Source: Schmidtea nova (lineage: Eukaryota). From it: a stretch of DNA of 64,000 nt. The notes below the pieces were generated by a model, which saw only the letters and a program-made list of their open reading frames with translations, was not told where the DNA came from and ran no database searches. The DNA is taken from positions 157,790,001-157,854,000 of the forward strand of contig CM097882.1 in NCBI GenBank assembly GCA_044892505.1, read 5' to 3'. This document shows, piece after piece, positions 3,290 through 64,000 of this stretch (the first letter of the stretch is position 1; each line of letters opens with the position of its first letter). The translations under genes and the position numbers were made by a program.

Positions 3290-4925
3290 GTAGAATATCA
3301 TCGCACGTGCGAAATTGTAAAAGTTTTCTAGGAGACCTGGAATGTCTTGGTACTATAGGATTTATTTAGAGGCTGCTTGAAATTCATGTAAACAGTCAAG
3401 GCAAATACGAAAGGAATTTCCAATTCTTTTTCATAATTTAATAGTATATGATCTACATCATATCCTTAAATACGGTTTAAGTGAGTTTAAAACTTAGAAA
3501 GTTTCTTGCATAGAGACGAGAAGTGAAAAGTTCTTAACTTTATCTGCAAGAATCGGTGGTTTAACTGTCAAATTTATCGATTCTTGTCAGTTTATAAATA
3601 GTTCTTTAAATGATGCTGTTAAAACTTTAAATAATTTTCATATAACACAATTAGAATTTAGAGGAACCATCATTATTAGTAAAGGTATTTTTTCCGTAAA
3701 ATATTGCTACTAGTCTGAAAGTGCTTTAGACAACTTTCGAATTGCCTCCAATTTAGGAAAATGTAACTGAAGCCCAGTACAATATGGCACAAGTTATATC
3801 GAGGGAAACAGATTGCGTTAATCTTTGTGATTATATGATGATTAATCTGAAATTTGATGTCTTCCTTCTTGCCAACTTTTTCCAGCAGTTTCGAACCAAA
3901 TCCTTAGCTCATAATCGTCTTGAACCTTTGAACTTTATAGGTATTCTAGGTATGTCTTGGAGTTCAGCTTTGATGACTTTAGATGAACCAATCAAGTTTA
4001 TCCAAAACATGGAAATGTATAATTTCTTTGAAGGTCGAATACATGGGAGATTTACATTTGTAAACAAAAATTTTGTAAAATCAAATCAAAGCACAGAAAT
4101 TTTATATATTGATATAAATAACTTATATATTTGGGCTCTTAGCCAGTATGTGAACTTTTCTTGGATTACCGATGGTAATGAACTAAATAATTTTATCAAT
4201 TTAATGAATGTAGATCTTGAATAACTTACATATGGTATAACATTTGAAGTAGATTTACAGATTCTCACATCTATTCATGATAAATCAAAAAGAAATATTC
4301 AAGACATACATTGATAAAAACACTAAACTTCAAGCAGAATCAATTAATACATTATATAAAAACAATTATAAACTTTTAAATAATTGTCTCTACGGTTTTA
4401 CCATAGAAAATCTTTAAAAAAAATAAATTTAAGGCTATGTAATTCGGTGACAAAATTAATTACATATGCATCTAAACCGGATTTTAAAAGAACATATAAA
4501 GTTGATGATCTAATCCAGGTTTTATTAAATAAAGATTCTGTATGTTTAGATAGACCTAGGTACATTGGACAAACCGTACTAGATCTATCTAAACTACGCA
4601 TGTATCAATTACAATATAATGATTTAGAAAAGTATCGTGTTGAATTTGATTGCGAAATAAATATAATTGCAGGCGACAGATTCATTCTTTTTAGAAATCA
4701 AAAGATTCAAGTTAGATGTGCTTTTACCTGCTTTGGTTAGAGATAATCTATTGGATACATCTAATCATGACACATCTCATCTCTTATGTTCAAGAGCCCT
4801 TGATTCCCTCATTGGTATATTTAAAGACGAAAATAAAGGGTGTAATATAAGGAATGGGTGTTCATTAGACCAAAATGCTACAGTCTTTTGGATGATAAAG
4901 GGATCATTAAATCTAAGGGTATAAT
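3290..4925 (+). pseudogene. degenerate protein-primed B-family DNA polymerase (Polinton/Maverick/adintovirus type)
   Basis: Fragments FPILFHNLIVYDLHHIL (~3417), EMYNFFEGRIHG and ILYIDINNLYIWALSQ (PolB motif A), SKPDFK and DRPRYIGQTVLDLSKLRMY; many stops and frameshifts. Confidence 0.8.
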
Positions 4926-4983
4926 AATTATTAATACTGGTGTGTTGGTTAGATGGACAACTGAGATCATTTGGATTTTATGC

Positions 4984-5155
4984 GTTAGGGTGATCTCACC
5001 AACATAAAAACCGATCCCCGCTGACACCCATGATGTATCCCTAACTACTCATCATGTTGGTGCTGTGTCAACGTTGTGAAATGACAAGGCAGGTGAGCAA
5101 CCTCGCGGTTACTATTCCCTTGTTTATTCACGGGTCCACCACTACCGATAGAAGG
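4984..5155 (-). ncRNA. conserved pseudoknotted cis-RNA element, copy A
   Basis: Sense CCTTCTATCGGTAG...CTGCC stem, GTAACC-GCGA-GGTTGC hairpin, CATGATG/CATCATG hairpin whose loop GTTAGGG pairs with downstream CCCTAAC; homologues at 11674, 43384 and 48117. Confidence 0.7.
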
Positions 5156-5330
5156 TTTCTGTGGATTTCATTCGGTCCCGATTATATGCGCTCTCTCGTT
5201 GTACTAGGGTAAACTCAATTATTAGGGTGCCTGTAACCTCAAATGAATCAGTTTGGTTTACTTTACATTTAATTTTCCAAGCATACCATAGACAAACAAA
5301 TCAAGCCAATCAGCGGTTACACCTTTATTT

Positions 5331-5888
5331 TTAGCTCAAAAATACAGACGGTCTGATCACATCTAATAACTGGTTCTCTGTGAGTCCGCTTAACAAATCC
5401 ACTTCAATGCCCAGTCGTTCGGCATACGCTCTGCGCTCACGTCGTTTCTTCGCCCCTAGGCGATTGCGACGTTTGGTCCTCTTCGAGCCTTCCGGTGGCG
5501 TCGATATCGCTGGGGTGGACGTCATAGGGTCGGGTTCTGTCTCGGTCTGAGTACTGGTAGTGATAGCAATCGTATCCACCCATCGATTGAATGTACTCGC
5601 CCGGATCATGGGGCGTAATTGTTGGGTAATGAACTCCTGCGTGGAGGTTTTCAGGTAATTGTGTAATTCAAGCTTTACGGCCACTACTTCTCTCGCTTGT
5701 TCCTCGGCTACTCGCTCTGCTCGGTACCGGGCTTGTAATATCGCTTTGACCCTCTCTGGATTAAACCAAGTGGTCTTGATGCGCTGGTGTTCTTCGTTCA
5801 ACTGGCGCAATCGACTCTCGAGAACCTTAGAGCGGGCCTTATGCTCCCGGGCCTCTCGCTTGTAATCACGGGAGTTTTCAGTATTCAT
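5331..5888 (-). CDS. LTR-borne ORF2, coiled-coil protein with arginine-rich motif (185 aa, intact)
   Basis: Homologous to 12051-12612, 42494-43069 and 48595-49179 (WF(N/S)PE, IRxxxFxRW, K/RxRLGxxxRRxRR); acceptor TTTTTCTTTGTAG directly before ATG; AATAAA right after the stop. Confidence 0.8.
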   Translation of the reverse strand: MNTENSRDYKREAREHKARSKVLESRLRQLNEEHQRIKTTWFNPERVKAILQARYRAERVAEEQAREVVAVKLELHNYLKTSTQEFITQQLRPMIRASTFNRWVDTIAITTSTQTETEPDPMTSTPAISTPPEGSKRTKRRNRLGAKKRRERRAYAERLGIEVDLLSGLTENQLLDVIRPSVFLS

Positions 5889-6120
5889 CTACAAAGAAAA
5901 ATGTGTGTTCAGTTCGAGTTATGATGAAACGAGGGTTGGGTGTTCCCGGCTGCCCCTATCCATTAAGTTGTTATAATTCAACGTTCTGTCAGTTTCGCAT
6001 TCTTTAAATTTCTCGGCACTCATCTCATTCAGAAATCACAACAAGACTTTTCTACAAAATTTTATTTGGTTAAAACAAAAATTCAGTTGGTTTCTTATGT
6101 CCCGATGAAGACATATCTTC

Positions 6121-6765
6121 CTAGAAGAAAGGCCGTATCTCTTGATCCATGTTTCGGTCATCTCGTCTCTTTCCATCGGCTTGGTACAGTTCTGGGGACG
6201 GGTGCCAACAAAGTTTATCTTTGTATGCAAACACCTCCCATAATCGGAGTTCGCTCGGATATGGGTTGGGCTCCAAGGTTACGCTTCCGGGCGCGTGTGA
6301 GTAGAGCTGGATTTCCCCAGTGTCGCTACACCAAGGCCTATCCAGGAGAAGATATCCGAGCCTATAGAATGCCGGGCCCGTCATGATTTCGGTGCATAGG
6401 ATCCAGCGAGGCTGTCCCGCTTCGTCAGTCATTTGGATGAACCATCGCGAGAGGTTCAGGTTGGGCTGGCTCGGAGATACCGACCAATCCGAGTCTCCTT
6501 CCCATCGCAGTTGGAATTCGAATGAGCACGAGGCGACTCTGGCCGCGGGGCTGGTGTGTCGTCGCGTCCACCTGCGAAGGTGTCGGCAAGCTTGCCGAAC
6601 CCTCTGAATGGGTGCGTCCTCCGTCCCTTGAAGTTTCCTTCCTCCTTGTCTATCCGTGTGCTGCTCAGACATGGAGTGCGGGGGTTTCCGGCTCCTTTTA
6701 ACTCGATTTGACTGCTGCTGGAATGATGAAGTCGACATCGGAGTGATAATGTTTTCGAGCTTCAT
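6121..6765 (-). CDS. LTR-borne ORF1, unknown function (214 aa, intact)
   Basis: Shares the WEG-x-x-x-W...FI-x-M-x-D/NE-x-G-x-PRWI pattern with 13023-13307 and, more weakly, 49506-49982; acceptor TTTATTACGACAG directly before ATG. Confidence 0.7.
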   Translation of the reverse strand: MKLENIITPMSTSSFQQQSNRVKRSRKPPHSMSEQHTDRQGGRKLQGTEDAPIQRVRQACRHLRRWTRRHTSPAARVASCSFEFQLRWEGDSDWSVSPSQPNLNLSRWFIQMTDEAGQPRWILCTEIMTGPAFYRLGYLLLDRPWCSDTGEIQLYSHAPGSVTLEPNPYPSELRLWEVFAYKDKLCWHPSPELYQADGKRRDDRNMDQEIRPFF

Positions 6766-7626
6766 CTGTCGTAATAAATAATTTTTGTTGAGTGATCATC
6801 ATTGATTTTTCGTTATGCGTTTATAGTCGATCATTCCACGCAGATTAGTGATTTAGTCGATCTTATGCATGTGGGTGGCTAGTAGCCAGACGGCTCACCA
6901 TCGGTTGATCGGTGTAATAGACCGTGCTATATTCGTGGGACTGTACGTTGGTTATCATCTGTCACTAGATATTGGTATCATTTTAGAATTATTGACAATC
7001 ACTCAAATCACACATCACAACCGAAATACTGGCATTTGTTTCATTACTAGTTTCTAAATCCCCATCACTCCCGCCAACATACATCATCACCCTTTGGGTG
7101 CCTCATCGGTATCTATCAATGATCATCGCTCTTTAGAGTGAATTGGGGTTTGGACCTAGTAAATTTTAACCCCTGTATGAAATGCTCATGCACTATCAAC
7201 CTTAAATTTTGGTGTTCACCCCTTGTCCTGAATTCTCTGTGGTCCGCAGTAGGTATTCTGTATTATCTCCACCTCGTCTGATATACGGTCGACACGATGT
7301 TTCTCGACATCCCATGTGCATCCCTTTCCCCGATCAATAATTAGTTAGTACACCTAGGGTCTCGCCGCATCAGCACCTCATATGAAAATATGTTGTGCCG
7401 AGAGACCGAGAATCCCGTCAGACCGTTAGGCCTTCGGGACGATCCTTACTGATTTTAATATTATTATGAGGGTTTAAAATCAAAGAAAACACCAAGTTAA
7501 CCATACCTTTTATTTCGATGCTACTTTCTCGTTGAAAATCTCACAAAGTTACAGTTAGTTCACATTCGATAAAATGGCTGATAACCAGTGACTGGCAAAA
7601 AAGTGACCCTCATACTGATTTCGCTT

Positions 7627-7668
7627 CAGTATTTATACTAAGTTTATGTTGTTGGCCGGCCAATCAGC
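7627..7668 (-). promoter_or_regulatory. LTR promoter (TATA plus CCAAT box), copy A
   Basis: Minus-strand GCTGATTGG followed ~20 nt later by AGTATAAATACTG; same pair at 41050-41090 and 50877-50923. Confidence 0.7.
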
Positions 7669-8127
7669 ATCGAGTATGTGTGTACTTATTGCTACTCATT
7701 TATGTTCGTCAGTCTTTCTGTGTAATTCTATTCAGTAAGTTGTTTATTTAACCATGCGTTAATTCTTTGTTATGATTTATTTTATTTTAGATGTTCGGTG
7801 ATGTCCGCCCACGTCCTGTCATATTTTCAGATTTATCTGATTTGCATGGGTGAGTTTTTATTGTTACTTTATTTTGATTTATTCTTTTGTTGTTTTCAGA
7901 TTCTGCCGCGTATAGCTGACTATTTGCTGATGGTAATTGATTTTTGTTGTTATTTTTATGTACATTTATTTCATTAAATTTTTATTACTTTTCAGGTGAC
8001 TGCTGATTTGTCTGGCCCAACATTAATATTATCTATAATATTATTATTATTTACCAAATGAATTGCGAATTTATTAAAGCTATGTAAACATAACAAAATA
8101 GAAAATAAAATTCAGATATTAAAATGT

Positions 8128-8218
8128 GCAGGATGTAGCTCAGTGGTTGAGGCACTCGAATCAAATATTTTAAATAATCTTGTTATATCAGAGGCTCGGG
8201 TTCAAATCCCAAGTTGTA
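8128..8218 (+). pseudogene. tRNA-derived sequence (SINE head or tRNA pseudogene)
   Basis: A box TAGCTCAGTGG and B box GGTTCAAATCCC with ~20 extra AT-rich nt between them; acceptor stem does not pair well; partial second copy near 9225-9260. Confidence 0.5.
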
Positions 8219-8320
8219 ATAATTTTTTTTATTTTTTCGTTTTTCTGAAAATCTTTTTACAGAATCAGATTCATCATATTGAGTTTGATCTAGATTAAAT
8301 TTTTAATGAATTGTGACAAG

Positions 8321-9146
8321 TGTTGGAGTTTAGTAAAAATTAGTCAAATACAAAATAAAAACCATAAAACTTAAAAAAATTAATAAAAATAGAAACTTTT
8401 GAAAATAAATTAAAATTTTTATTTAAATTCGAAAACAGAGAATTAGAGGGAGAATTGGTATGGGTGGATGCCGAATATTGAGACGAATCCAAAAATAATA
8501 AAATAAAATCTATGGGGGTCCCGAGAAAAAAAGAATTAACAAATTAATTAAGAATTAATTGGCTAATGGGAAACCCGAGACAAAAGAGAGACCGAATAGT
8601 GCGGGAAGCCCGGATGAGCAGTATGACAGGTAATTATTCCTGAAAAAATTAACAGTAGAGGAGACCCGAACAGCGTAGCTGACAGAAGGATAATAAGTAA
8701 TTTAGGAAATTTCAAATCGGGAACTACCGTCAGACAGCTTCAGCAGAGTTGAAAATCCATCAAAAGGAACACTATAAAAAGGAGTGGTAAACATCAAATT
8801 TTGCCAGAGTGGTCGAAGAAAAAAAGTAAATGAGTTACGAACGAGAGAAGCCAGAAAACGAGTTAGGAGTGACAGTTAAAAAGTTAGAAGTTAAATTCAT
8901 TCTTCAGGCGTACCAAAAAGGGAGATCTTCCTTTGGGAGACGTATCCCTGCGCAGAGTTGGAAAGCAGTTAAATAAAAGTTGTTGTGAAATTTAGTACAG
9001 AGACTTGTTATATCAAAAAATTGTGTCAGAGAATTTTGATAGTTTCCAATAAATTCTTCTGTGTTGGGTTATTTCACTGAATCTAGTTTAAATAACACCG
9101 AGGAGTCAGATTAACAGCTCCGGCTAAATAAACAAATACCCAAAAA
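8321..9146 (+). mobile_element. solo LTR (1.1-kb family relative, 826 bp)
   Basis: Starts TGTTGG, ends in degenerate CCCAAAAA, flanked by 4-bp TSD CAAG; shares CTAATGGGAAACCCGAG and GAGGAGTCAGA motifs with the other copies. Confidence 0.7.
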
Positions 9147-37295: not shown

Positions 37296-39984
37296 TGTTG
37301 AGGTTTCTAAACTAAAATTATAATAAATAAAGTTTTAAATGAAATTTTAAAAGGGAAATTGGATGAATCAGATAGATAGAAAGTATAATCAAGCACAAAA
37401 CTAATGACAAAGGAAACTGTGATGAAAACAGAGTTAGGATAGGATACAGTGAGATTCGAAATGCAAAATGAGAAAAAATGAATAGATAGTAATATCTAAC
37501 AAAATTGAATGTGGAAAGCGGGGCAGGTATAGATTAGTTATTGGCGAAGAACATATTGATTAGGGATCGGTCAGAAAATGTTTAGAAAGGGTCTATAAGT
37601 ATGCAAATGCATAAAAACAGAAAATCGTTAATTAATTGATTAATTGGCTAATGGAAATTTTACACACTTGATAAAGGCTGATCCGAAATATTGTGTACTT
37701 GTTTAAAAATAATTTTGATCTATAGTCTTACCATTATGGGAATTATTGATATTAATATTAGAAATATCAAAGGTGAAACAAAAAGATAATTATGTTAACC
37801 CATTAAGGACCGTTTTAAGTTAGGGTTTTATTTTGTTGTATGTCTCGATGTCTTTTAATTAGGTTTGTCATCGACTATGGAAAACCAAAAGTTCATGGAA
37901 TTCTATTCACTCTATGTGGGTCAAACTTGCTGATCTCTAATGAGATCAGTGGTCCTTTATATGCAGGAAATGGGTAGAAAGTGAAAAATATATGTTTCAC
38001 TCAATAAACATGATAAGTTTCAAAACAAGTTTGACACAAAGTTACATTGCATTTTTACAGTAGGATCGGGGTCAGTTCTCGCCTTGACATTGCCTTTGCT
38101 CTTCTCTTCTGGCCATGAAGTGACCATTGCCATCATATCTAAAATAACAAATGTCATACACATACAACATGGCAATATTGTAATGCATAAAGGAATTTCT
38201 CACCTCACTGTATTAAAATTGCTTGGTAGCTATGCCCTATCTTCACTGATGGATGTTGACATTGTTTCATGTATGCCATGGCTATAGCTCTGGTAAAATC
38301 CAGAAGTGGAGTCTTATTACTATGTACCATGTTGTGTAAATGCCAAGCATTTGTAACACACATTTGTAGAGCATTCATTACAAGTGGCCAATTGTACCTG
38401 CTACATCACCAACAATGCCTTCATCATCCATCTCATCCTCATCAGTATTTTCATCTACATTTTCTGGTGGTATAACCACAACATTACAAATATTAGCACT
38501 ATTTCCGCTGAGAATGTGATTAGCCACGTCTTTGGCAGTTCTTTTCGATAAAGTTCTCAACATCTAAAACAAAAGTAAGAAATTAATGAGGTAATTTTTT
38601 AAGAGATACTTCCTGCATGCAAATAATTCAGAGCTAAACAGTACAAAAGTATTTGCTAAGAGATATTTTAATCATTCCCAATTTGAGCCCTATTCAGAAT
38701 TAGGTCACTTTACCTTAGTGGCAAGGTTAAAAAGCTAAAAATATTGTTCATTAATAAGTAGAAGCTGTTTCTAGTTAAAAATATTTATTATTTCATAGAA
38801 CATTCAAATGGTTTTGAAGTGATCTCAAAATATGCCACTAGGTTAAAATTATTCATGCAGAAGACCAGTGATCTCAAATGAGATCACACAGCTTTGGCGG
38901 TATGAAAATACCATTTAACAAAACTACTCATGTTTCATATTTTTATTTACACTGATAATATTCTATTATCGTAAATGTTTTCGGGTTTTTATTATTTGAA
39001 ATAATTTCTGACAGATGAAAAACTTACTTGCAAAGAACAACACAGTTTTTTCAAAAAATGGCCAACTTTAAAATTGTAAAACAAAGTCAAATCATGAAAT
39101 AAAAATTTACTTTCAAGGTTAAAAAGTAAAAACTATTGTTGATCAATAAATAAAAGCTGATTAAAGTAAAAATATTCATTATTTCATAGAACACTCATAG
39201 GGTTTTAAAGTGATCTCAAAATATGCCAGTGGTCCTTAATGGATTAATTAATTAATTAATTGAATAATGGAAAATCCGATCTAATGGAGAACCCGAGATA
39301 AAAAGAAAACCCGAGCTCGGCAAACAAGGAGAGTAAAAGAATTGGATTTCGGAAAGGCCATTATCTCGTCATTATGAGTAATGGGAGTAGACAAATTGGT
39401 TTTTACGAAAGGGTAGCAGAAGGGTGTAATCAATCACTATTATTTCTCAGACGATATTCAAGAAAATCGATTTTCAACGCGTTGTCAATCAGAGAAGATT
39501 GGACCAAAACCTAATTAATCAAAATGAGTATTCTAGTATATAAGGAAACTCAGAATTGAAAACAATCGGCATTTTGCCTCAGTTAGAGAGAAGAAACCAA
39601 GATTAGATTAAATGAATCATGGTTAGAAGGAATAGGAAAGTAAAGCGATTAGTGAAGCGATCAAATAAAAAGACAAGAGAAAAAGAGTAAAGAAAATTAG
39701 AAAGAGCTGAATCAAGAGAAAACCAAATTGTTAAAAAAAGAGTTCAATCCATAGGAAGCAAATATACAAGGTGATTATTATTGATAAAGCGCACAAAGTC
39801 AAAACATCTCACAGCGGAACTCGATCAAATAATTGAGACGTTATATCATTATTGTGTAATTATTGAAGTGTAAAATATGGTAATAATTTGAAACAAATAT
39901 TACCTTTAGAGTGTTATTTGTTGATTTATAGAGCACGAGGAGTCAGAGACACCGACTAGTAGTAAAATATTAATAAACCCAACA
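37296..39984 (+). mobile_element. solo LTR (~1.1 kb net) with nested insertions
   Basis: TGTTGAGG...CCCAACA with 4-bp TSD GAGC; interrupted at ~37660 by a foldback-repeat arm and a piggyBac. Confidence 0.85.
37799..39243 (-). mobile_element. internally deleted piggyBac element
   Basis: TTAA on both sides, TIR CCCATTAAGGACC / GGTCCTTAATGGA; minus-strand remnants VVVIPPENVDENTDED (N-term), CVTNAWHLH...LLDFTRAIA and YDGNGHF...QRQC (C-term). Confidence 0.85.
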
Positions 39985-40270: not shown

Positions 40271-41049
40271 ATTTAGAGAATAATCAGGTTGTCTCCCATG
40301 AGGTTAGCTATCGTGCTGTTGTTATTAGTTGAGAAGTGCAAATTGAATTTAACCCGTTCGGTGCGCAACATATTTTTGAGATTTTGTTCTCGCTGTCAGC
40401 TCATATTTCAGTGGTTGCGTGATTATTCGTGTTTATTCCACAGAATGCTAGAAACAACTAAGTGTAGGAGCCTGATCATGGTAAATATATTGAGCATTCA
40501 AATCTGCAGGATGGAACATGCTCGCAGACGCTTAAATTTATTATAACCAACAAAGCCCATTATAGGACGAATTTAGTAAAATTGATTTTTGAAATTGCTG
40601 TTGAGAATTCCTTCAAAATATCAGAATTCATTCGTATTTGTAATTTTAAAAATAAAGTTAAAGTTCTGAAGCGTTAGTTGATTTCATGACATTTCAAATT
40701 TTCATGACAATTGGTTAATCATCTAACCATATATCTAAACATTTTTTCTGAAGTGCTTATTGGTTTATGTCAATAATCATAAAGATCTGTTAACTAAAAA
40801 TAGAGTTACTAGTGTGGCGGGGAAAAATTATTATTTTAAGGAAATCTTTGGCAATTATTATTTATTAAAATTAATTAAATAATGTATAAAAATGTAATGA
40901 GAAATGAGAATTATTGATTAAGAAATATAATAATATGTTTATAAATAATTAATTAAGAAAATAAATAATAAAAATTAAGATCGATTAAAACAAAAAATTC
41001 TGATAAATAAATTTATAAATAAATTGGTTTTACGACCATCAGCTTGAAA

Positions 41050-41090
41050 CTGATTGGTCGGTGTGCTGATCTGATCAGTATAAATACTGA
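41050..41090 (+). promoter_or_regulatory. LTR promoter, copy C
   Basis: CTGATTGG followed by TCAGTA-TAAA-TACTGA (TATA inside an inverted repeat). Confidence 0.7.
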
Positions 41091-42493
41091 ACCAGAATCT
41101 GATAATTTTAATGCATGATTTTTGTATAAGTCAGTTGAACTTAAATTTGGATCAGAAATTTCACTGAAACTATCTTGAAAGGTATGACTGATTTTATTTT
41201 TTTGGTAAATTTTGGTAGTTTATGTTATTATGATTTCTGTCAAATTGTTTCATAGTTAATAATATTTCTTGAAAATTTAAATGTTTATGATTATTTTTTA
41301 TAATATATAATTAGCTTGTGCTCCTTCCACTGTGTAATCGGTGGAAGGAGGCGACCCTAGTAGGGGTATCTAAGATGCCGCGTGGAGGGTTAGCCATCTT
41401 CGTAGTACTCGGTGCTACGAAGACGGTAGGGAATTGATGTTAAATTTTTGTTATTAATGCTGGCAACTATAGCCAGATTACTAATATTCTTACATTGTTA
41501 AATACTTCTATATAGTATGATTAGATAAATTTCATTGTTCACTACTATCAAGATTTATTCTGAACAACATAACATTTATTTGGATATTGCACATTGTGGG
41601 GTTTGCGCACGAGGATACCAAAAACTCTGTAAATATCTGATAGAGATTCCACAAATAGTTAGGATAGACGACATTCGATTCAATCTAATTGATCACGATT
41701 TTTGAGTACCTATTTTCAAGGCGCGTGTTGACGCTTATTTCCAAATTGTGATGTTAATAACAGATTAAGTATTCCAAATCGAGAGAATTAATGATGAGAC
41801 AGAAATTTCTTTTGCGGTACTATACTACATAAATAGATTGAGAATTGCAATTGACTATCATTCTAAACAATTGGGATAGATCGAGGAAACCTACATAATC
41901 CCTTACTCGTTGCGACATTGAGGGGTATCACATACATAAATCGATTACGTAAATCCAGATTTTTTATTTAAATTCAATTCTGATGGCAAGCGCGGATCTA
42001 GACGCTGTGTGGTAAATATCGTGACTGAAATAGCAAGATCAGTGTAGGTATTTGAAGCGGCCTACTCTGATGCATAGTAAATTGCTGATAGAACATTTAT
42101 TGAATTTGATCGACCACAAATATGAATGAAATTAAATGATTATCCTGATCCCTGTATATAGAGCAGAAGATCTCATTTTATAAATACAAATTATCCTAAT
42201 TGCTGTAGATAGCACAGGTATAAATAAATAAAACTAAATGAATTAAACTGATCACTGTACATAGCGACAGTGTTTAAAGAAATTTTTTATGTCTATTTTT
42301 CTTCTCTCATTTCCAACTTTCCATATAATAATTACGAGAGAATCATCATTCAAACGATGGCATAAAGTCTGTCGGGGTTATAAGATGGATTATCGAGTCA
42401 AAGTAATTCATAAAGAAATCTTAGCAACATTCATTTATCAATCATTTATTGTGAAATTTAAACAAGAAATAATAACTATTGATTTTCAGAACT

Positions 42494-43069
42494 ATGTTGT
42501 CAAATAACTCAAGCTCGCAAACTGAATTAGATAAGGCTTGGCTATTCATTCACAGCCTAGAGAAGGAAATCAATCTAACCAAAGAAAAGCTAAAAAATTC
42601 TGAAACAACAAATTCACATCTTCGCAAAAGCTGGTTTAGTCCAGAACAAATGAAAAGTCAACTTATAAAAAATCAACGCGCCCAACGAGCCGGAGAAGAG
42701 TACCGCATCGAGCTCGAAGTAACGAAAATAGAATTAAGGAAATGTCTGCGCTCGGTGACGACGTCATTCATTGACACTGAGTTGAAGAATCTAATACGGC
42801 CAGTTACTTATCAACGCTGGTCGGAAGAAAAAGCTGGATGTTCTATAGAAACTAATACCGAAGGGTTTCCGCAAATCCCTGAGGTTATAACAACAACAGC
42901 ACCGAAAATCTCATCTGCAATTGAAATTAAGAAAAACAAGAAAAACAAAATGGGCTCACGCCAAAGGAAGTGGAAAAAACAATTCGCTCAACAGAGAATC
43001 CATCACAATGATGAAATTCCAGAAATCGATCTGACGACAGATTTCATGACATGGGATGAGGATTTTTGA
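42494..43069 (+). CDS. LTR-borne ORF2 (intact)
   Basis: Acceptor GATTTTCAG ends at 42489, ATG at 42494; WFSPEQMK, LRKCLRSVT, LIRPVTYQRW, KNKMGSRQRKWKK. Confidence 0.8.
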   Translation: MLSNNSSSQTELDKAWLFIHSLEKEINLTKEKLKNSETTNSHLRKSWFSPEQMKSQLIKNQRAQRAGEEYRIELEVTKIELRKCLRSVTTSFIDTELKNLIRPVTYQRWSEEKAGCSIETNTEGFPQIPEVITTTAPKISSAIEIKKNKKNKMGSRQRKWKKQFAQQRIHHNDEIPEIDLTTDFMTWDEDF

Positions 43070-43383
43070 AATTTTTTGATTAAATTACTGAAGTTAAAGT
43101 CTTATTAGTTTGTACAAATATAGTTTTATTATTTTCTTTAATTAAATTTTTGTAAAGTAAAGTAGTTTAAAGAAAATTTATTATTAAATGTCGAACGGAA
43201 TTAATCAAGTATAATTTATGTTAGAAGGGTATTCATAAAATTTAAGAAACGATCAACATTAGGATTTAAAGTAGAATATATAATAATTATTCGAATTAAC
43301 TGTTGATATTGTAAGAAGGGGCAGGAATAATAAAATGAAAGATAATGAATTCAGATAAAGTAAAGTGAAAGTAAAGCGTAAGT

Positions 43384-43567
43384 CCTTCTATCGGCAGCGA
43401 CGAACCCGCGAACATAAATGGGGAGTAGTTCTAGAAATAGGGCTCCCCTGCCCATCATTGTTAAAACACCTTACACATTTTCAACTCGACTATCCAGGGA
43501 AATAGTCGAGGGTGCTTGTGTGTCACGTAAGCATTTTATGTTTGGTCGTGGATGGAGGCATCCCTAG
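43384..43567 (+). ncRNA. conserved pseudoknotted cis-RNA element, copy C
   Basis: CCTTCTATCGGCAG...CTGCC, GGGGAG/CTCCCC, CTCGACTAT/ATAGTCGAG hairpin with loop AGGGA complementary to downstream TCCCT. Confidence 0.7.
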
Positions 43568-43899
43568 AGCATGTTTTCTGTTTAATTTTAACCCATCCAT
43601 GACCACAACAGTATTCTAGGTTATTATATTTTGATAAATAAATTCTTAGTTTTATCCTCAAATTATTAATTTTATAATAAATTATAAACTTGGCAATCCA
43701 CTGTTATTAAAAAAAGCTAGCGGCAACTTTTCTCTAATCTTATTCAGCCTAACCTAGCCAAATCAAGCTCAAATCTACTTCTTACACTCATTTCTCATCT
43801 TATTTAAATTCGAAATCGTCATTCATCATTACTTGCTAAAGCTGGGAAATTAAAATCTTGTATAAATTTGTCTAATTCATTATCAGCGTAATTGCCTTA

Positions 43900-46303: not shown

Positions 46304-47902
46304 CAAGGGTGTCAAACTTATAGGCTTACATGGGCCAAACAAACAAGGTTTAAAGTTAGGTGGGCCGTAAAAAAATCAATATTCATAGAAACGTAGATTT
46401 ATCTTGAATAATACATTATAATAAACATATGCAAAAAAACAAGAGAAATGTAATATTTACGTCCTGAAACTTGACATCTCTTCTCTGCTTCTATTTTTCC
46501 AATTTCGGGATAAACTTTATTCGCAGTTGTTGAGGATACCTAAAATACAAAATAATATAAAAATAATAAAATTACCTGGGAAAAATCATCATGACGAAGG
46601 AGACGGTCAATGGAAACACAGAAAAGAAAACGGAAATAAAAAGAAATGAGAAATGAGAAAGAGGAATCAGACAAAAGAAATCAGAAAAAAGAAATCAGAC
46701 AAAAGAAATCAGACATGAAAACAAAAACATAGGTCGGCACTAATTAATTAGTACAAAAGGAAAAGGAATTTCAAATTGGGAAAAACAAAAATAACAATAA
46801 TGAATTTATCTCGACAGCTTGTCAGAGATAACGAAAACGAAAAGAAAACACGCCGGAGCGGCAAAAAGGAAAAAAAATTAGCCCGAGTGCCGAGCTGTTA
46901 AAGACAGCATGGGAGTTCTAAAGAATATGGAAAATATGAGATGCAGAAATGGAAAAAAAGAAAAGAAGCGAGTTGTCCCGAGTGCCGAATTTTCAAGGGC
47001 AATGTGGGAGTCGTAGAGAGAAAATGGGAAATGCCAAAGACGGGAGTGGCAAAGGCGAAAAAGCCATAAGTGAAGGACGATGGTGAACTATAAAAGGCGA
47101 AAGCAATCGGAACAAAATCAGAAGTAAAATCGGAGAAGTAAAATTGAAGAAGCAAAGTGGAAATGAAATTAGCGAAGAAAATAGAGAATTCGAGTTGTAA
47201 TTGAGACGAAAAGTGAGTGCGTAAAATTAGAAAACTATAAAAGATTTAAATTGTATTTTGGAGAACCAAGATCGAAACAATTTAATTGATTGAATAAAAA
47301 GAGTCAGAGCGGTTAACAACGAATAAAGTCAGAGTGCGGAAACAATCGAAATCAATTACCAATATTAAATCCAATCAGTGGTTAGACGTTGTTGTTTTCT
47401 AGACATTATACAATTGAGCTATTCTTCACGAAGTGTCATAATAAGCGTGTATAATTGTCGAAAGAGGTGTTGAAATGAGCGTGATATTTTGAATCATGTA
47501 AATCATTGTAATAGTCAAATAAAGTTTGTGTTATTGAAAGTGTTGTTGGGGTCAATGAAAAGCATCTTTAGAGTAAGATATTTGATTGGCAACGTTTACC
47601 ATTTCACCAACAACTCCAGAACCCAACACAGTGATGACAGTCAGTAGCCTAACTTTTGACATATTTTAGATAATATTTATGCTTAAATACCGTATTTACT
47701 TAATTGTGGTATATTCAAAATAAATGTACGCATTTTGTTTAATAATTGCAAAAAATAAAGTATAAATAATAAATGTTTAGCGAATTCTATCTATATAATT
47801 TTTTTCTGCGTCGGTTTGTTATTTTATTATATATTATTGTGTGCCGATAATATGGCCGGGACCAAAATGGTTCATTGCAGGCCGTGAGTTTGACCTCCCC
47901 TG
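46304..47902. mobile_element. hAT (Charlie-like) MITE split by a solo LTR
   Basis: TIR CAAGGGTGTCAAACT / AGTTTGACCTCCCCTG with GGGCC subterminal motifs; TSD not matched. Confidence 0.55.
46528..47628 (+). mobile_element. solo LTR, 1101 bp
   Basis: TGTTGAGG...CCCAACA with perfect TSD CAGT; close relative of 14812-15914. Confidence 0.9.
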
Positions 47903-48116
47903 AGCTAAACCATTTTGTCGTAGCTCCTCAAAATATTTTTGCTTCCACAGAAGATTGACGAAAATAACTCTTTTGCCAGGTTCCATTGCCCTATTTTGAA
48001 CCTAGTTCTCTACAAAATTCATAAGTTCATCATATCTGCTGGGATTATGGGTGGGTTTTAAGTAATTCAGATAAATAGTTAATCATTAATTGAACGACTA
48101 CTGATGAGTACGTATA

Positions 48117-48296
48117 CTAGGGATTCCACGCCCATAACCATACATAACATGACTACTACACGCGTATGCCCTTGACTATTCCCTACTAGTCAAGTTGGTA
48201 CTGCATACGGTGGTGGAAAAATGATGGGCAGGTGAGCTTTGTTGCCAAAACTACTCCCCATTTATCTTCCCTCGGGTCCTTGCTGCCGATAGAAGG
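48117..48296 (-). ncRNA. conserved pseudoknotted cis-RNA element, copy D
   Basis: CGTATGC/GCATACG and CTTGACTA/TAGTCAAG stems; loop TAGGGA pairs with downstream TCCCTA. Confidence 0.7.
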
Positions 48297-48594
48297 TCTT
48301 ACGCATTTACATTCTAGGGATGTTCGCCCTACTGAATTTTGTACTACATATCCTTATGATCTATCATACGCTTTTCCCAATGACTTTCTTTAATTGATCT
48401 ACAATGTAATTAATCAGTCCCTGCGTAGAAACGGTCGGTTTGAGAAAATTTCGGGTGCGATTTTTTATTTCGATGATTTCATTGTTGTTATTTTATTTTA
48501 TTTAGTAACATCACCCGATGAGAGACAAAATTTACACAGAAAATACTTTTATTAAAATACTAAAATCAGGTTGTTATTTTACATAGATATTTTC

Positions 48595-49179
48595 CTAAGC
48601 GAATTCCAGACTGATCTCCTGAATCAACTCCGCTTCGGTTAAGGAGTTCAAGTGGTGGATTTGTTCGTCCAGGCGCTTTGCAAATTCTCGGCGACGACGA
48701 CGCTGTCGCGATCCCATTCGGTGTTTTCGAAGCTGTTGGTTTATGACCGGTGCTGACGCTATTGTTCTCGGGGGATCACTGAGAAAAATAGACAAGTCTT
48801 CCGTTGCGAGAGTGGGGGCCATGATGATTTCCTCTTCCGTCCCGCAAGCGACATCTTGGTGAGTGCATTGTATCCAGCGCTGAGCCGTGATCGGCCGGAT
48901 TAGCGCTCGTAATTCGGAGTCGATGTAACTTCTTGTTACTGCATTTAGGCAGTTTCGGAGTTCCCGCTGGACGGCATCTAGTTCCAATTTGGTTGCGGCC
49001 AGTGCTTCCTGCATCCGCTCAAGTTTTTTCGACTGGTCCTTCATTTGTTCGGGTGAGAACCACTTCGCTCTCAATTCATCATTGGCGACCGTGAGTCGCT
49101 TGATCTGTCGCTGCTGGTCCCTCAACTTCCTTTCTTGGATTTGTCCCATGATTTTCTTAGAATTTTCTGAAGTCGGCAT
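48595..49179 (-). CDS. LTR-borne ORF2 (intact, MPTSENS...)
   Basis: First ATG at 49179, 5 nt after acceptor ATATTCAG; WFSPEQMK, LRNCLNAVT, LIRPITAQRW, KHRMGSRQRRRRREF. Confidence 0.82.
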   Translation of the reverse strand: MPTSENSKKIMGQIQERKLRDQQRQIKRLTVANDELRAKWFSPEQMKDQSKKLERMQEALAATKLELDAVQRELRNCLNAVTRSYIDSELRALIRPITAQRWIQCTHQDVACGTEEEIIMAPTLATEDLSIFLSDPPRTIASAPVINQQLRKHRMGSRQRRRRREFAKRLDEQIHHLNSLTEAELIQEISLEFA

Positions 49180-49505
49180 GTTGTCTGAATATGATAACGA
49201 TAAATTCGCTGGAGGACCTATCACCAATGTTATTTTATTTAAACAACTATTTATTATTATTAAACGAGTTACATACTAATGTTTTTAATTATTGAGTTCT
49301 TTGCAAAATTATTTAACTACCTAATTATTGAAGGCTCAAAAAATTTATTGAACTAATTTGAGATTATTAAATGAAATTCCTAATGACTATAACAACTACA
49401 ATACTAAATATTAATAAATCTACATTACAACACTATTAACAAAATGAACATTTCAGATTTCTTTAAAACATTTATTTAATTTAGAACAGGTGGCCATTGA
49501 TGTAA

Positions 49506-49982
49506 CTAGTTATCTTCGGTCATTTTTCCTCGATACGAAAATATCGATCTGATTTGCAAATTTGTATGGATTCCTGTGCTATTGGACGAGGCCTGCTGAA
49601 AACGGGTTCTCTCCGCTTCTCGAAGGGGTCGTATGGCTGTATTGAACTTGAACCCCAATTCCTTGAAGGTAGAGGCTGGAATGAACCCCCAATAAATGAC
49701 ACATTTCGGGAATCCTCCCTTATCCAACATCAGAACGAACCAGGCGGCGTGCCATGATTCGAATTCCTCGTCTGGAATGATTGGCCAACTAGCGCATCCC
49801 CGGTACCATACGTGATGCCGTGGATGGTCCCATACCGTAAATGGACAGGCGATTTCGAGCTCTCGGCGCCATGCCCACATTTTTTGATGGATTTGCTGTA
49901 AAATCTCGAAAGGTGCCGGCTTTAATGGGCTAACTCGGGCTCGTTCTTGTCGTTTTTTGATAGTGTATCTATGCTTAGTCAT
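49506..49982 (-). CDS. LTR-borne ORF1 (158 aa)
   Basis: WYRGCASWP...WFVLMLDKGGFPKCVI resembles the copy A/B ORF1 core; acceptor AAATTCAG ~15 nt before ATG. Confidence 0.62.
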   Translation of the reverse strand: MTKHRYTIKKRQERARVSPLKPAPFEILQQIHQKMWAWRRELEIACPFTVWDHPRHHVWYRGCASWPIIPDEEFESWHAAWFVLMLDKGGFPKCVIYWGFIPASTFKELGFKFNTAIRPLREAERTRFQQASSNSTGIHTNLQIRSIFSYRGKMTEDN

Positions 49983-50876
49983 GATTCCAAAACGATGCTG
50001 AATTTTATAATAGTTACAATTTACATCAATAATTAATCATAGTAAATGTTATCTCTCATCGTGATACCCTTATTATTTGCCTTCCCCTTAGACCTTAGCT
50101 GAAATCAAGGAAAACTGTCGTTCGTTACGGTATGCATTACTCTCGTATCTACTTAGCTTTATCTGTTTACGATCAATATTATAGTTGAAAAATGGTGATT
50201 TGTCTGCTTGGATTTTTAAAATATTGATACCTCAACACGGAAGCTCTCTCCCGTCATGTATCCCTAGCTTATTCGAAAAACGCTCTTTTGTACCAAATGC
50301 GGTCGACAAAATTTTCTGAGGTTTATTAGACGTTTATCTAGCAACAATTCGTGCCTCCCCACGGTTAAAGAATTCTTTCATATCTTTAAGCTTTATCAAA
50401 AATTTATCGTCCCCTCCGTAGCCAAAACGATCAGAAAATAATTCCCCGGATTTGTTGGGTGTCCCATGTGCAAATCTCATCCATCACTAACAAAATTATG
50501 TTTTGTTATTTATTACTTTACCGTGTGTGGAGCCCTCGAGCACCACGCCACGGACGGACACCTTGGGAACCTAAAGCTCCCAACGGCGCAAGATTAATAT
50601 GATAGTTTAAATAGTTTAAATATAACATAAATCATGAGATAACTAATAAATTATAATATGATAATGACATACGAATACAACGATATCATAAACGTAAATA
50701 TACCAAAAATACCTCAATTGAATTCTGAAAATTTATTGATCAAAATCGGTCTAAACGGTGATCGTCGTCGGGGCAATGTGCAATCTAATGTGAATTTTTA
50801 GTTAAAGTCTAAATTTCAGTCTAACAAAGTCTACTGAAGTCTCACTCTAGTCAAAACGTCTCTTTTTATGAAAAAT

Positions 50877-50923
50877 CTGATCAGTATTTATACTGATCAG
50901 TCGTGTCTAGACCGACCAATCAG
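50877..50923 (-). promoter_or_regulatory. LTR promoter, copy D
   Basis: CTGATCAGTA-TTTA-TACTGATCAG palindrome containing TATAAATA on the minus strand, CCAATCAG box adjacent. Confidence 0.7.
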
Positions 50924-51491
50924 GTTCGGCCATTTTCAGGGTGGTTTTTAATTATTGTTCTTGATTCTAATTAATTTTTATTTTTTAGATTGTATTCTTC
51001 CTTGGAGGTCCGGGTTTCAAAAACAATTATTCAATAACAAGTACTTTTATTTTGTTTTAATTACCATTATTTGTATTTATTTTGTTTTTTAGATGTCTCC
51101 TGGGCCAGTTAATATCTCGAAATTCCTTTATTTTTATTTATAGCTTGTATTTAGTTTATCTATATTTTTACTATATTATTCCTTTCTTTTAATAAATAAA
51201 TATTCCCCTTTTTATCTTATTTTTCTCTTTTTTGTTTTAATTAATCCACTTTTATTTCACTGTTCCCTCTATTTGGCTGGCCCAACATCACTCGGGGACC
51301 CCTAAAATTGCGTCCCGCAATTAATTATACATTTACACCTATATCATCATACATAAAAATTAAGCAGATAAATGTCAATTTACATATACACAAAGAATCA
51401 CATAAGGTGATAGATTTTATACGTAAGCACAAAGTCATATTATTGTTAAATGTAAGTGGATCATACATAAAGTGAATGTAATATATCAGTT

Positions 51492-51713
51492 TTACACAAG
51501 CTCTTTGATTTCATGATTGGTATTGGATTGGATTGGGGTTCTTTCGCTGATTGTTCGTAGTTCGTAGTGGCTTTGGATTCGGTTTAGGTGTTTTCTCATT
51601 CGCTTTTGGGTTCTGCTGTCTTGTATTGTTGTTCGATTCAGGATGACTTGTTTTTGTTTTAGGATCTTCACTCGGTATGATGCTATGAGGATTGTGATCG
51701 CGATAATGGTCAC
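51492..51713 (-). CDS. possible small accessory ORF (hydrophobic N-terminus)
   Basis: Last ORF of the A-rich array; overlapping alternative frame 51511-51750; no clear acceptor. Confidence 0.35.
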   Translation of the reverse strand: MTIIAITILIASYRVKILKQKQVILNRTTIQDSRTQKRMRKHLNRIQSHYELRTISERTPIQSNTNHEIKELV

Positions 51714-51787
51714 GCTGAGTGCAAGGATTATTATAATTGCGATGATCCATTTTTCTTGATATTCTATTTCTGCTTGGGCTAAGCTTT

Positions 51788-52063
51788 TTATGGGTTCTCG
51801 ACCTTCTTTTGGGTTTTTCTGATTGTTTTCAATTTGATTCGATGTTCATATAGGACCTGTTGAAATTTTTCATCGTTTGGGTTGTCTGATGTTATCTGTT
51901 GAAGTTGGGTGATTTCTTGTGTTGCTTCGCTGATTAGTTTATCTAGTTCTTGATAGGTTTTCTCGGGTAGGGCTCGTAGCTCCTTCTCTGTGAGTTGAAG
52001 ATCTTCTCTTTGTAGGGTGATTGTTATTAGGTATATGAATATCGGTATTCCGAGCTTCTTCAT
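51788..52063 (-). CDS. small accessory ORF, hydrophobic N-terminus plus coiled coil (91 aa)
   Basis: Same codon style as neighbours, LGIPIFIYLITITL segment, tandem position in the array. Confidence 0.55.
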   Translation of the reverse strand: MKKLGIPIFIYLITITLQREDLQLTEKELRALPEKTYQELDKLISEATQEITQLQQITSDNPNDEKFQQVLYEHRIKLKTIRKTQKKVENP

Positions 52064-52145
52064 ACTGTTTTCTTTACAGATAGGTCAATACAATTTGACA
52101 CTACATTTCATACAATTATTTACAAAAATATATTTTCCGCTTTAT

Positions 52146-53207
52146 TTACACAATCGTCTCGTTTGGTTCGTAGAAACCTTCGTCCTGAGGCTCTACCTGA
52201 TTCGTGGGGAGTGGTATCCATACAACCCTGCTCCTCCACATTTCGACTTCATCTCGATACATGTGAGATATCTGGATTTCCTCGTCCAGCAAATATTCTA
52301 GGTAATTTGCTTGTTCTGTTAATGTTTCTATTTGCTTCTCTAATTCGATTACTTTTGTCTTTTGTTCGTCTTCCTTCATCATTTTTGTTACGGCTGCCGT
52401 TATACTTGCTTCTTTGGGTATTACTGATACTGTTACTCGTTTCTGTTTCAATTCTTCGTTTTCTTTCATCAAATTCGTTAAATTTTCCTCATAACTTTGT
52501 TTCTCTTCCTTTAACCTTTCTCTGGTTCTTTTTAGCTCTATTTTCTTCTGGGTAATCACTCCTTGATAACCATTTATATCTCTCTTCATCTCTTCTTCTT
52601 TCTGATTCCATATTCCGGTGAGCATAATTTTCAGTTGTTCTTGATTAGCAAGTTCTTCTCCCATTCTTTGAACTTGATAGGTTAGTCCTTTAATTTTCTT
52701 TGCTTGTTCCCGGATAAATTGCTGTCTCTTTGTATTCCATCTTTTATTCAACACTTCTTGGTGTATTTTCTGTTCTAACTCGTCTTTTAATTCGTCGATC
52801 TCTTTATATAATTTCCAGTCATCACTATAAGCTGTCCTTTCTATTATTTCTCTAGCTTTTTCGTAAGATTCTTTCGCTTCTTTCTTCCAGTATCTTGCTT
52901 GTTCTGTAATCGAATACATCTTGTGTTCAGCTTCCATCTGCTGTCTGTCTCTTTCCTCTCGTCGCTCTTTCATCATTCTCTGGTAATATTCCTTTTGTTG
53001 TTGTAGCACTTTGTATACTTCTTCTATTTTTTCTCGACTTCTTTGACTTGATCTTTCCGCTTCTTTTAATAATTCGGCTTGTCTCTCTATCTCCTCTTGT
53101 TTCCCATAATATGCATTGACCCATATTTCAATCTGTTCTCGATGATCGCTAATCGCTTCGGCTTGATGTATCGTAATTTCTTGTAAGCATACTTCGATAT
53201 TTCCCAT
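52146..53207 (-). CDS. accessory coiled-coil protein (353 aa)
   Basis: Long E/K/Q/R-rich helical ORF; T-tract acceptor TTTTTTTTTTGAAATTATAG 2 nt before ATG. Confidence 0.8.
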   Translation of the reverse strand: MGNIEVCLQEITIHQAEAISDHREQIEIWVNAYYGKQEEIERQAELLKEAERSSQRSREKIEEVYKVLQQQKEYYQRMMKERREERDRQQMEAEHKMYSITEQARYWKKEAKESYEKAREIIERTAYSDDWKLYKEIDELKDELEQKIHQEVLNKRWNTKRQQFIREQAKKIKGLTYQVQRMGEELANQEQLKIMLTGIWNQKEEEMKRDINGYQGVITQKKIELKRTRERLKEEKQSYEENLTNLMKENEELKQKRVTVSVIPKEASITAAVTKMMKEDEQKTKVIELEKQIETLTEQANYLEYLLDEEIQISHMYRDEVEMWRSRVVWIPLPTNQVEPQDEGFYEPNETIV

Positions 53208-53324
53208 TGCTATAATTTCAAAAAAAAAATTTTTTTAATCGGTTTATATATCAGTTATTTTTTGTTTATATAATAATTTTTGGGTATTTAACTGTACACA
53301 TTATTTACATGATCACTTCTCTTG

Positions 53325-54707: not shown

Positions 54708-54797
54708 TCTACAATGATATATACACTTGATTTGTTATCTATTTTTTGATTTTTCTTGTTTTTGTTTTACATATTTACAATTTTTCGCTTTATTTAT

Positions 54798-55154
54798 CTA
54801 CGGCTCGTTTGTTGAATCTGGTTCTGGGTCATTTTCTGATCTGTTTATTGCCCAATTTGTCCATCCATCCTCTGCTTCTTCTGTCTCTCCCATTGTTAAA
54901 CGGTCTATCTCTATTGCTTGTCTCTGATTTATGTCGCTCATCACTTGATTCTCTCTGGTGAGTTGCGTTATCAATCTCTGTTGCTCCTCGATTCTGTGGA
55001 GTTGTTCAAAACTATTATTATAACTTTCGGATAACAAATTCTGTTTCTCAATTAACTGATTTTGTAGTGAGTTGATTGTTCGTATTAACATGTCACACTG
55101 GGCTTTCCATCGCATAGCCATAGTAGTTTCTGCTATTTCTTCCTGTTCGTTCAT
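54798..55154 (-). CDS. small accessory coiled-coil protein (118 aa)
   Basis: Heptad-like Q/E/L pattern; acceptor TTAATGTATATAATTTAG 3 nt before ATG. Confidence 0.7.
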   Translation of the reverse strand: MNEQEEIAETTMAMRWKAQCDMLIRTINSLQNQLIEKQNLLSESYNNSFEQLHRIEEQQRLITQLTRENQVMSDINQRQAIEIDRLTMGETEEAEDGWTNWAINRSENDPEPDSTNEP

Positions 55155-55279
55155 TTTCTAAATTATATACATTAATCGTTTTCTCGATTTCTCTTTTTAT
55201 ATTTTTATAATATCGATACCCATACTATTACGGTAATGCATTGTTATTTACACTATTATTTACAGTCATATCCCGCCTC

Positions 55280-63997: not shown

Positions 63998-64000
63998 TGT

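Follow-up and report, generated by a model that had tools for sequence, protein, structure and literature searches.

Candidate spliced genes and a structured RNA element inside probable long terminal repeats of a Burro-like giant retrotransposon family in Schmidtea nova

A 64,000-nt stretch of the Schmidtea nova genome (assembly GCA_044892505.1, contig CM097882.1, forward-strand positions 157,790,001 to 157,854,000; referred to as the window, with all coordinates counted from its first base) contains four related units, designated A to D, which were found by self-comparison and translated searches. Judged from the sequence, the units are probably long terminal repeats (LTRs) of a Burro-like family of giant Ty3/gypsy elements, and they appear to carry spliced genes that have been kept by selection. 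LTRs normally do not contain protein genes, and an insertion that has recombined down to a solo LTR is generally regarded as no longer coding. In the units described here, the LTR seems to carry with it a complete candidate transcription unit, the genes of which have been under selection and belong to no known family.

Four related units and their identity

Unit A (4935–8022, minus strand) is 3088 bp long, has TG...TA termini, a non-canonical form of LTR terminus, and is bordered on both sides by the direct repeat TTAA (4931–4934 and 8023–8026); its AT-rich flanks also permit the reading of a 5- or 6-bp duplication. Unit C (40813–43615, plus strand), a probable solo LTR of 2803 bp with TG...TT termini, is flanked by CTAG. 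Unit D (approximately 48032–51287, minus strand; about 3.25 kb), whose 3' end was placed solely by its likeness to the end of C, abuts the internal region of a giant Ty3/gypsy element in the 48–64 kb part of the window, and begins 204 nt past the last internal open reading frame (ORF) of that element in the same orientation. All three units start with TG. Unit B (11617–13445, minus strand) is partial and decayed, with an in-frame stop in ORF1, a frameshift and in-frame stops in ORF2, and an intact 3' RNA element; neither a 5' boundary nor a promoter or target duplication was found for it. Similarity at the DNA level is confined to short blocks, and the units represent different subfamilies. 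The predicted relatedness of the ~3-kb units A, C and D, together with the partial B, was borne out, ORF2 and a structured 3' RNA element being common to all four. Global DNA identity among A, C and D (0.58–0.61) was barely higher than that obtained with one shuffle each (0.54–0.57), and was not used as evidence.

It is very probable that the units are LTRs, because A and D share their terminal bases, D abuts the internal region, and A and C have 4-bp target duplications. The first 11 bases of A, the end of which is defined by its duplication, are identical to those of D (11/11); the shared 11-mer is expected 0.006 times by chance, and a third copy lies inside the polyprotein gene at 56611. 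Target duplications were recognized in two of three units (TTAA in A, CTAG in C, none convincing for the truncated B), with chance probabilities, over 10 candidate ends, of 0.12 for TTAA, 0.014 for its 6-bp extension and 0.03 for CTAG. Protein matches to an internal region were not found near A, B or C. Most likely, therefore, A and C are solo LTRs of related but other subfamilies, B is a decayed fragment, and D represents the 3' LTR of a recently inserted copy. The original prediction that the units are solo LTRs thus holds for A and C, which combine 4-bp duplications with the absence of internal remnants, but not for D, which occupies the 3'-LTR position of the giant element.

Expression signals, conserved proteins and RNA structure inside the repeats

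A CCAAT box in inverted orientation and a TATA box, represented by CTGATTGG(C/T)CGG followed by AGTATAAATACTGA, are found together at only three places in the window, with one pair in each of A, C and D (CCAAT/TATA positions 7667/7639, 41050/41077 and 50923/50894, respectively); the promoter 14-mer is expected 0.003 times in the window by chance, and B lacks the promoter pair. The candidate promoters thus delimited lie at 7626–7667 in A (minus strand; motifs and spacing matched only in C and D), 41050–41090 in C (plus strand) and 50923–50881 in D (minus strand). In all three, the first AGGT[AG] past the TATA box is the candidate splice donor AG|GTAT (7503–7508 in A, 41180–41185 in C, 50714–50709 in D), at +131, +103 and +180 nt, respectively, the background frequency of AGGTAT being 0.18 per kb per strand. 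The resulting leaders are 75–152 nt long and contain zero to two ATGs each. Putative splice acceptors were defined as a T-rich YAG within 8 nt of an ATG, a criterion chosen after the sequences had been inspected. ORF2 has such an acceptor 0–5 nt before its ATG in all four copies, compared with 181 of the 2228 ATGs in the window that satisfy the 8-nt definition. The acceptors of ORF1 are weaker: neither of the starts in A and D qualifies at 8 nt and one of two does at 20 nt, as the CAG directly before the ATG in A fails the T test and D passes only at 15 nt. Among the internal accessory ORFs of the giant element, three of four have an acceptor at the ATG (background 6.5–8.1%), and the fourth fails by inspection. 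The layout foreseen for A, C and D, with a promoter, a downstream donor and acceptor-fronted ORFs, is hence beyond chance, with strong acceptor support for ORF2 and weaker support for ORF1. An intronic hairpin cluster in A (7330–7470, minus strand; local folding z-score –3.7) has counterparts in a comparable position in C (z –3.7) and in D (z –3.4), which are not alignable with it.

ORF2 comprises 185 amino acids (aa) in A (5331–5888, minus strand), 191 aa in C (42494–43069, plus strand) and 194 aa in D (48595–49179, minus strand). The homologous proteins of the units are 31–43% identical, and the frame is open in A, C and D and broken in B. Identity by codon position follows the order second > first > third in all six pairs (0.53–0.65, 0.43–0.53 and 0.25–0.34, respectively), and the ratio of non-synonymous to synonymous differences (pN/pS) is 0.50–0.65 across the six pairs, with bootstrap upper bounds of at most 0.76; as the synonymous sites are saturated, no corrected dN/dS can be given, and the protein-guided alignment inflates identity. 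In neutral controls at matching site identity, the mean amino acid identity was 7–10% and none of 200 frames stayed open at each of four settings; at a site identity of 0.34, amino acid identity did not exceed 15.7%. These comparisons indicate that ORF2 was under purifying selection while the subfamilies replicated. Since this selection acted between subfamilies, during replication of the element, it would reflect the replicative history of the element and says nothing on the solo copies. Recent insertion suffices to explain the intact frames, given the long open polyprotein frame (2906 codons) of the element to which D belongs, and B has decayed, as expected of an unselected copy. Of the claim that intact ORF2 frames in strongly diverged copies point to selection, purifying selection itself was confirmed, but selection on solo LTRs was not.

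Structure prediction suggests that ORF2 consists of a coiled coil, a conserved core, a low-confidence linker, an Arg/Lys-rich motif and short helices; the single-chain model shows long helices, the linker and a basic helix (pLDDT 74.6, pTM 0.31). Residues 1–112 were modelled as a parallel homodimer with a score of 0.46, compared with 0.00 for the best of three controls, and the runs agreed in at least 60% of contacts at a pLDDT of at least 71. The mark applied was reached by 17 of 29 solved eukaryotic homodimers and by none of 30 single chains, but by only one of seven proteins without an older solved relative. All four copies have 10–12 Lys/Arg within 20 residues, a statement of composition only. 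The models suggest that ORF2 is likely a dimeric nucleic-acid binder. A basic leucine zipper (bZIP) transcription factor was considered and rejected, as there is no Pfam bZIP match and the coiled coil is N-terminal instead of following a basic region. The ORF2 proteins of A, B and C, but not D, contain the Asn-x7-Arg/Lys spacing of bZIP proteins. Homologues of ORF2 were not detected above the Pfam cut-off, among 326 candidates or in a 1.84-billion hidden Markov model (HMM) search; the best match in Atlas (0.75) is a lead that lies below the noise level, comparison with the PDB returned generic coiled coils only (E 0.06 or worse), and none of 34 matches in a viral fold library reached E 0.001. 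An exact look-up of eight proteins in a protein collection gave no match (0/8).

ORF1 is homologous among A (6121–6765, minus strand; 214 aa), D (49506–49982, minus strand; 158 aa) and the broken copy in B, with 21–30% identity, alignment scores reached by none of 1000 shuffles, and a conserved aromatic core. In C, the best score for an ORF1 homologue was 36 (reached by 8 of 300 shuffles) and no profile matched; the corresponding position (41470–42200, plus strand) holds a stop-interrupted frame which is unrelated to the ORF1 of A, B and D, has no family match above the cut-off, and may be either a different decayed passenger or non-coding filler. No relatives of ORF1 were found in Pfam, the PDB or Atlas or among 298 candidates, and structure prediction failed (pLDDT 36); a role as a transcriptional or host-modulating accessory protein is a guess.

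A feature absent from the original prediction is a conserved RNA element in the last ~230–270 nt of all four units (A, 4986–5155, minus strand; C, 43384–43566, plus strand; D, 48118–48296, minus strand). It contains an invariant 11-mer, four copies of which are present in the window, one per unit, together with a GNRA hairpin and a second hairpin with a loop able to pair with a terminal CCCTA. The helices were picked by motif after inspection, and the four sequences amount to about three lineages; on this basis, the 7-bp helix, GNRA-capped in three of four copies, retains 28 of 28 pairs with two-sided changes at four of seven positions, the second helix retains 20 of 20 pairs, and the loop-to-CCCTA pairing is kept in 26 of 28 cases over seven positions. 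Loop and terminal CCCTA thus probably form a pseudoknot. The core of the element in A folds at a z-score of –3.57 (equalled by none of 200 shuffles), and the sense strand folds better than the antisense strand in all four copies. Searches with Rfam covariance models yielded 15 matches (E up to 1), none of which falls in any unit. A reading of the loop-CCCTA pairing as a pistol ribozyme was rejected, since the bases past CCCTA are not conserved and Rfam gave no match.

Expression model and alternative placements

According to the model that we propose, it is likely that transcription initiates some 420 nt from the start of the LTR and that the short leader exon is spliced to alternative acceptors of ORF1 and ORF2, and probably also to those of the accessory genes in the internal region, similar to the leader exon of complex retroviruses that is joined to alternative acceptors. 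We see an even chance that solo LTRs can yield the same mRNAs, with a 3' end either at an AATAAA past ORF2 or close to where the LTR ends. More tentatively, ORF2 may be a basic regulator which dimerises and binds nucleic acid; its target would be the RNA of the element itself, probably at the structured 3' element, and its effect would be to favour export or packaging of unspliced RNA. The 3' element could serve in packaging, dimerisation, priming or translation just as plausibly as it could be a protein-response element, because in a 5' LTR it would sit just before the primer-binding site. The genes would have been kept by selection for element replication, with the solo copies as passive heirs. 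It is improbable, though worth stating, that ORF2 and the pseudoknotted LTR RNA constitute a Rev/RRE (Rev response element)-like pair, the first in Ty3/gypsy elements, and that solo LTRs, as self-contained regulatory modules which combine promoter, intron, gene and poly(A) signal, stay expressed and provide full-length elements with the regulator in trans.

The original prediction placed the ORFs in an R region of about 2.3 kb. The AATAAA hexamers on which this was based are present where they had been reported (A, 5329–5324 on the minus strand, directly after the ORF2 stop; C, 43329; D, 48553–48548), but their position is not conserved (2, 97, 260 and 42 nt past the ORF2 stop in A, B, C and D, respectively), and such a hexamer is expected from composition alone with probabilities of 0.21, 0.52, 0.81 and 0.61, respectively. 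The hexamer occurs 12, 4, 7 and 17 times in units A, B, C and D and has a frequency of 2.5 per kb per strand. The AATAAA after ORF2 is weak evidence for a poly(A) site. The long R holding the ORFs is thus unproven, and we regard it as somewhat short of an even chance. With the ORFs in a long R or in U3, a solo LTR by itself makes up a complete transcription unit.

A location in U3, which we consider possible but unlikely, would mean that a second promoter just before the 3' element starts the genomic RNA, with an R-U5 of ordinary length (250–300 nt), and that the upstream promoter drives the LTR genes only. In A and B, the invariant 11-mer is indeed preceded, at a distance of about 30 nt, by a TATA-like sequence (TATAAT/TATATAA), and the arrangement would spare a 2.7-kb strong-stop DNA. 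The R-U5 leader of retroviruses moreover lies where the structured 3' element sits, and nef, sag and the U3 overlap of foamy viruses are precedents. However, the TATA-like box is absent from C and D (2/4), the sole promoter common to all complete copies is the upstream one, and the internal genes need a donor, the conserved one being located near that promoter.

Somewhat less likely still, the ORFs may lie in a long U5, preceded by an R of about 100–150 nt that ends at an AATAAA just before the donor. In that case, only read-through of the 5' copy would express ORF1 and ORF2, and a solo LTR would either terminate early or read through as a 5' LTR does. Such an AATAAA closely precedes the donor in A (7514) and in D (50737), but is missing from C, and the hexamer is common. 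With regard to the acceptors, it is likewise possible but unlikely that they serve an operon-like transcript which is resolved by trans-splicing of a spliced leader, instead of or besides cis-splicing. The spacers between the internal accessory genes (82–125 nt), with AATAAA at the upstream stop in two of four and an acceptor at the next ATG, do resemble flatworm operons; in Schistosoma mansoni, operons have a median spacer of 99 bp, and flatworm acceptors often serve cis- and trans-splicing alike (PMC12582326). Against this, a cis donor is conserved in all three complete LTRs, and the ORF1–ORF2 spacers in the LTRs measure 232 and 326 nt. One leader exon joined to many alternative acceptors is the simplest reading.

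A number of observations weigh against the proposal of long LTRs with selected, spliced genes. TG...CA termini were not found, the duplication-defined ends being TA in A and TT in C and hence differing between units; D has no polypurine tract directly before it, the best candidate, with 8 of 12 purines, being located 20 nt upstream; and the 5' LTR, primer-binding site and gag lie beyond the window edge (base 64000), which precludes a comparison of two LTRs. These points would suit an independent mobile element, non-autonomous or of DNA type, inserted by chance at the end of the gypsy element. This is nonetheless very improbable, as the units have neither a terminal inverted repeat nor a poly(A) tail, no 4-bp duplication is seen around D by inspection, the position and orientation of D fit a 3' LTR for which no other candidate exists, and the acceptor-ATG layout is common to the units and the internal genes of the giant element. 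Further adverse points are that B shows no convincing duplication and that its 5' part cannot be aligned to the other units (equally good scores are obtained by 10, 13 and 43 of 100 shuffles for A, C and D, respectively), that ORF1 is missing from C, that the poly(A) site is not placeable from sequence, and that folding of the whole 3' element yields z-scores of only –1.3 to –2.7, to which the saturation of ORF2 and the choice of helices mentioned above are to be added. As for protein function, the dimer score of ORF2 may stem from a generic likeness of coiled coils, a leucine-rich export-type pattern (loosely defined) is present in two of four ORF2 tails (A and B, not C or D), and no homologue backs any function for ORF2 or ORF1. 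Domestication of the solo LTRs as host genes under selection, which the intact ORF2 in solo units A and C and its retention in C without ORF1 might suggest, is the least credible explanation, in view of the decay of B, of a subfamily divergence that is older than each insertion, and of the fact that youth alone, as attested by the 2906-codon frame of D's element, explains the intact frames.

The giant element, its surroundings and comparison with known systems

The polyprotein gene of the giant element (55280–64000, minus strand; at least 2906 aa, the frame still being open where the window ends) codes for a fusion glycoprotein, protease, reverse transcriptase (RT), RNase H, integrase, ankyrin repeats and a tail of ~740 aa without assignment. 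PF24664 matches residues 9–195 and the protease residues 380–470 of the single 2906-aa frame, so env precedes the protease in frame; the order protease-RT-RNase H-integrase found with Pfam is that of Ty3/gypsy elements. Burro/GYPSM1 elements are more than 30 kb long and have a Gag with CCHC knuckles as well as BCL2-like, SUMO-like and BIR domains; none of these domains was among the Pfam matches in the part of the polyprotein within the window. The RT search, dominated by concatenated gene models, gave no named planarian record among the matches listed (best 120 of 1797); the architecture and a GC content of 32% suggest a triclad host. The region past the ankyrin repeats (55283–57499, minus strand) contains repeated Cys/Trp-containing units and two hydrophobic stretches, and has no Pfam or PDB match. 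Downstream, 51492–55154 (minus strand) holds the internal accessory genes, namely a 118-aa ORF, a TRAF-like gene, a 353-aa ORF with a coiled coil and, spread over two frames, a gene that resembles one for a membrane protein. The full-length TRAF-like gene (53325–54707, minus strand; 460 aa) encodes RING, zinc fingers, coiled coil and MATH, its best solved relatives being TRAF5, TRAF3 and TRAF2. The two overlapping frames at 51492–52084 (minus strand), split near 51800–51845, jointly resemble one membrane protein with a predicted N-terminal hydrophobic stretch, coiled coil and transmembrane helix. Six minus-strand copies of TGTAAATA occur in the 48–64 kb part (52124–55264), out of 13 in the whole window; each of the six is placed at an end of one of the four internal cistrons, and the interior of the coding sequences contains none. 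The motif may be a Pumilio-type element or a poly(A) upstream element. Two short palindromes are present at 51288–51325 (minus strand), where a polypurine tract before D would be expected.

Elsewhere in the window, a second family of probable solo LTRs of ~1.1 kb (TGTTG...CAACA) is represented at 14812–15914 (duplication GAAG) and 46528–47628 (CAGT), with related 3' ends at 74–374 and 21281–21574. The copy at 14812–15914 has a 67-aa basic ORF (15089–15292, plus strand) behind an acceptor-like site; the ORF is broken in the other copy, and no profile match links it to ORF2. A small LTR element at 29267–33002 is degenerate; it has TG...CA-type repeats of ~145 bp and retains remnants of RNase H and integrase. 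A hAT transposase fragment is located at 17349–17732. AT-rich palindromic arrays (22700–25300 and 37660–37790) include three of the window's four N gaps and gave Rfam microRNA matches below the cut-off. By eye, 8125–8420 and 9200–9440 resemble a tRNA-like repeat of the short interspersed element type; ARAGORN found no tRNA genes in the window. The frames beside A at 3757–4740 (plus strand), which have no Pfam match, we take, by eye, to resemble a decayed Polinton-type DNA polymerase.

The giant element resembles Burro and GYPSM1 of triclad planarians, which have a fusion glycoprotein in frame before protease, RT, RNase H and integrase in one very large polyprotein, ankyrin repeats, MATH/TRAF and coiled-coil accessory ORFs, and multi-kb LTRs; it differs in that TRAF is a separate full-length gene downstream of the polyprotein, whereas it is located inside or upstream in Burro/GYPSM1 (PMC6431247). 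BURRO1 is transcribed and PIWI-repressed in Schmidtea (PMC8532177), the DNA of which is over 70% A/T (PMC11410931). The section that describes Burro/GYPSM1 mentions no genes or RNA structure in the LTRs, and plant Ogre elements likewise have long LTRs of 1.9–6.5 kb (PMC6431247). The GAG-ENV-POL errantiviruses of nematodes, bryozoans and flatworms, with an Env of the herpes simplex virus (HSV)/gB type, are Ty3/gypsy elements which also have env before pol, but the LTRs reported from bryozoans and Macrostomum measure 0.3–1.4 kb; none was called in six Schmidtea entries by a method that reached only 3 kb out, so that LTRs of the present kind were outside its scope (PMC13524379). Bdelloid LTR retrotransposons likewise have spliced extra ORFs, but in the internal region and not in the LTR (PMC5408684). 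No account of ORFs inside Burro-like LTRs was found in the literature; the extended data of Grohme et al. 2018 or Jurka's Repbase entry may already show them. Shared-leader splicing together with a structured LTR RNA provides a testable model for the expression of many accessory genes from a giant env-carrying retrotransposon, a question which we found unaddressed in the literature consulted.

The export proteins Rev, Rex, Rec and Rem are small, encoded by spliced mRNAs, and combine an Arg-rich motif and self-association with structured LTR RNA response elements. ORF2 resembles them by analogy, as a small accessory protein with a basic motif, a modelled dimer and an adjoining structured LTR RNA; it differs by the lack of homology, an export-signal pattern in two of four copies and the long N-terminal coiled coil, and Pfam, HMM, PDB and viral fold searches disclosed no Rev/Rex-type sequence or fold relationship. 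Spliced protein-coding sequences in or overlapping a retroviral LTR are known from nef of human and simian immunodeficiency viruses (HIV/SIV), sag of mouse mammary tumour virus (MMTV) and bel2/bet of foamy viruses, all of which lie in U3, upstream of the main promoter. In the units described here, to which no sequence relationship of these genes was found, promoter, leader exon, intron and whole ORFs would instead lie inside one LTR. If expressed, solo LTRs of this kind would be dispersed protein genes in the host genome that are missed by LTR-masking annotation, and, if ORF2 is indeed a regulator supplied in trans, the formation of a solo LTR would convert an insertion into a helper gene instead of inactivating it.

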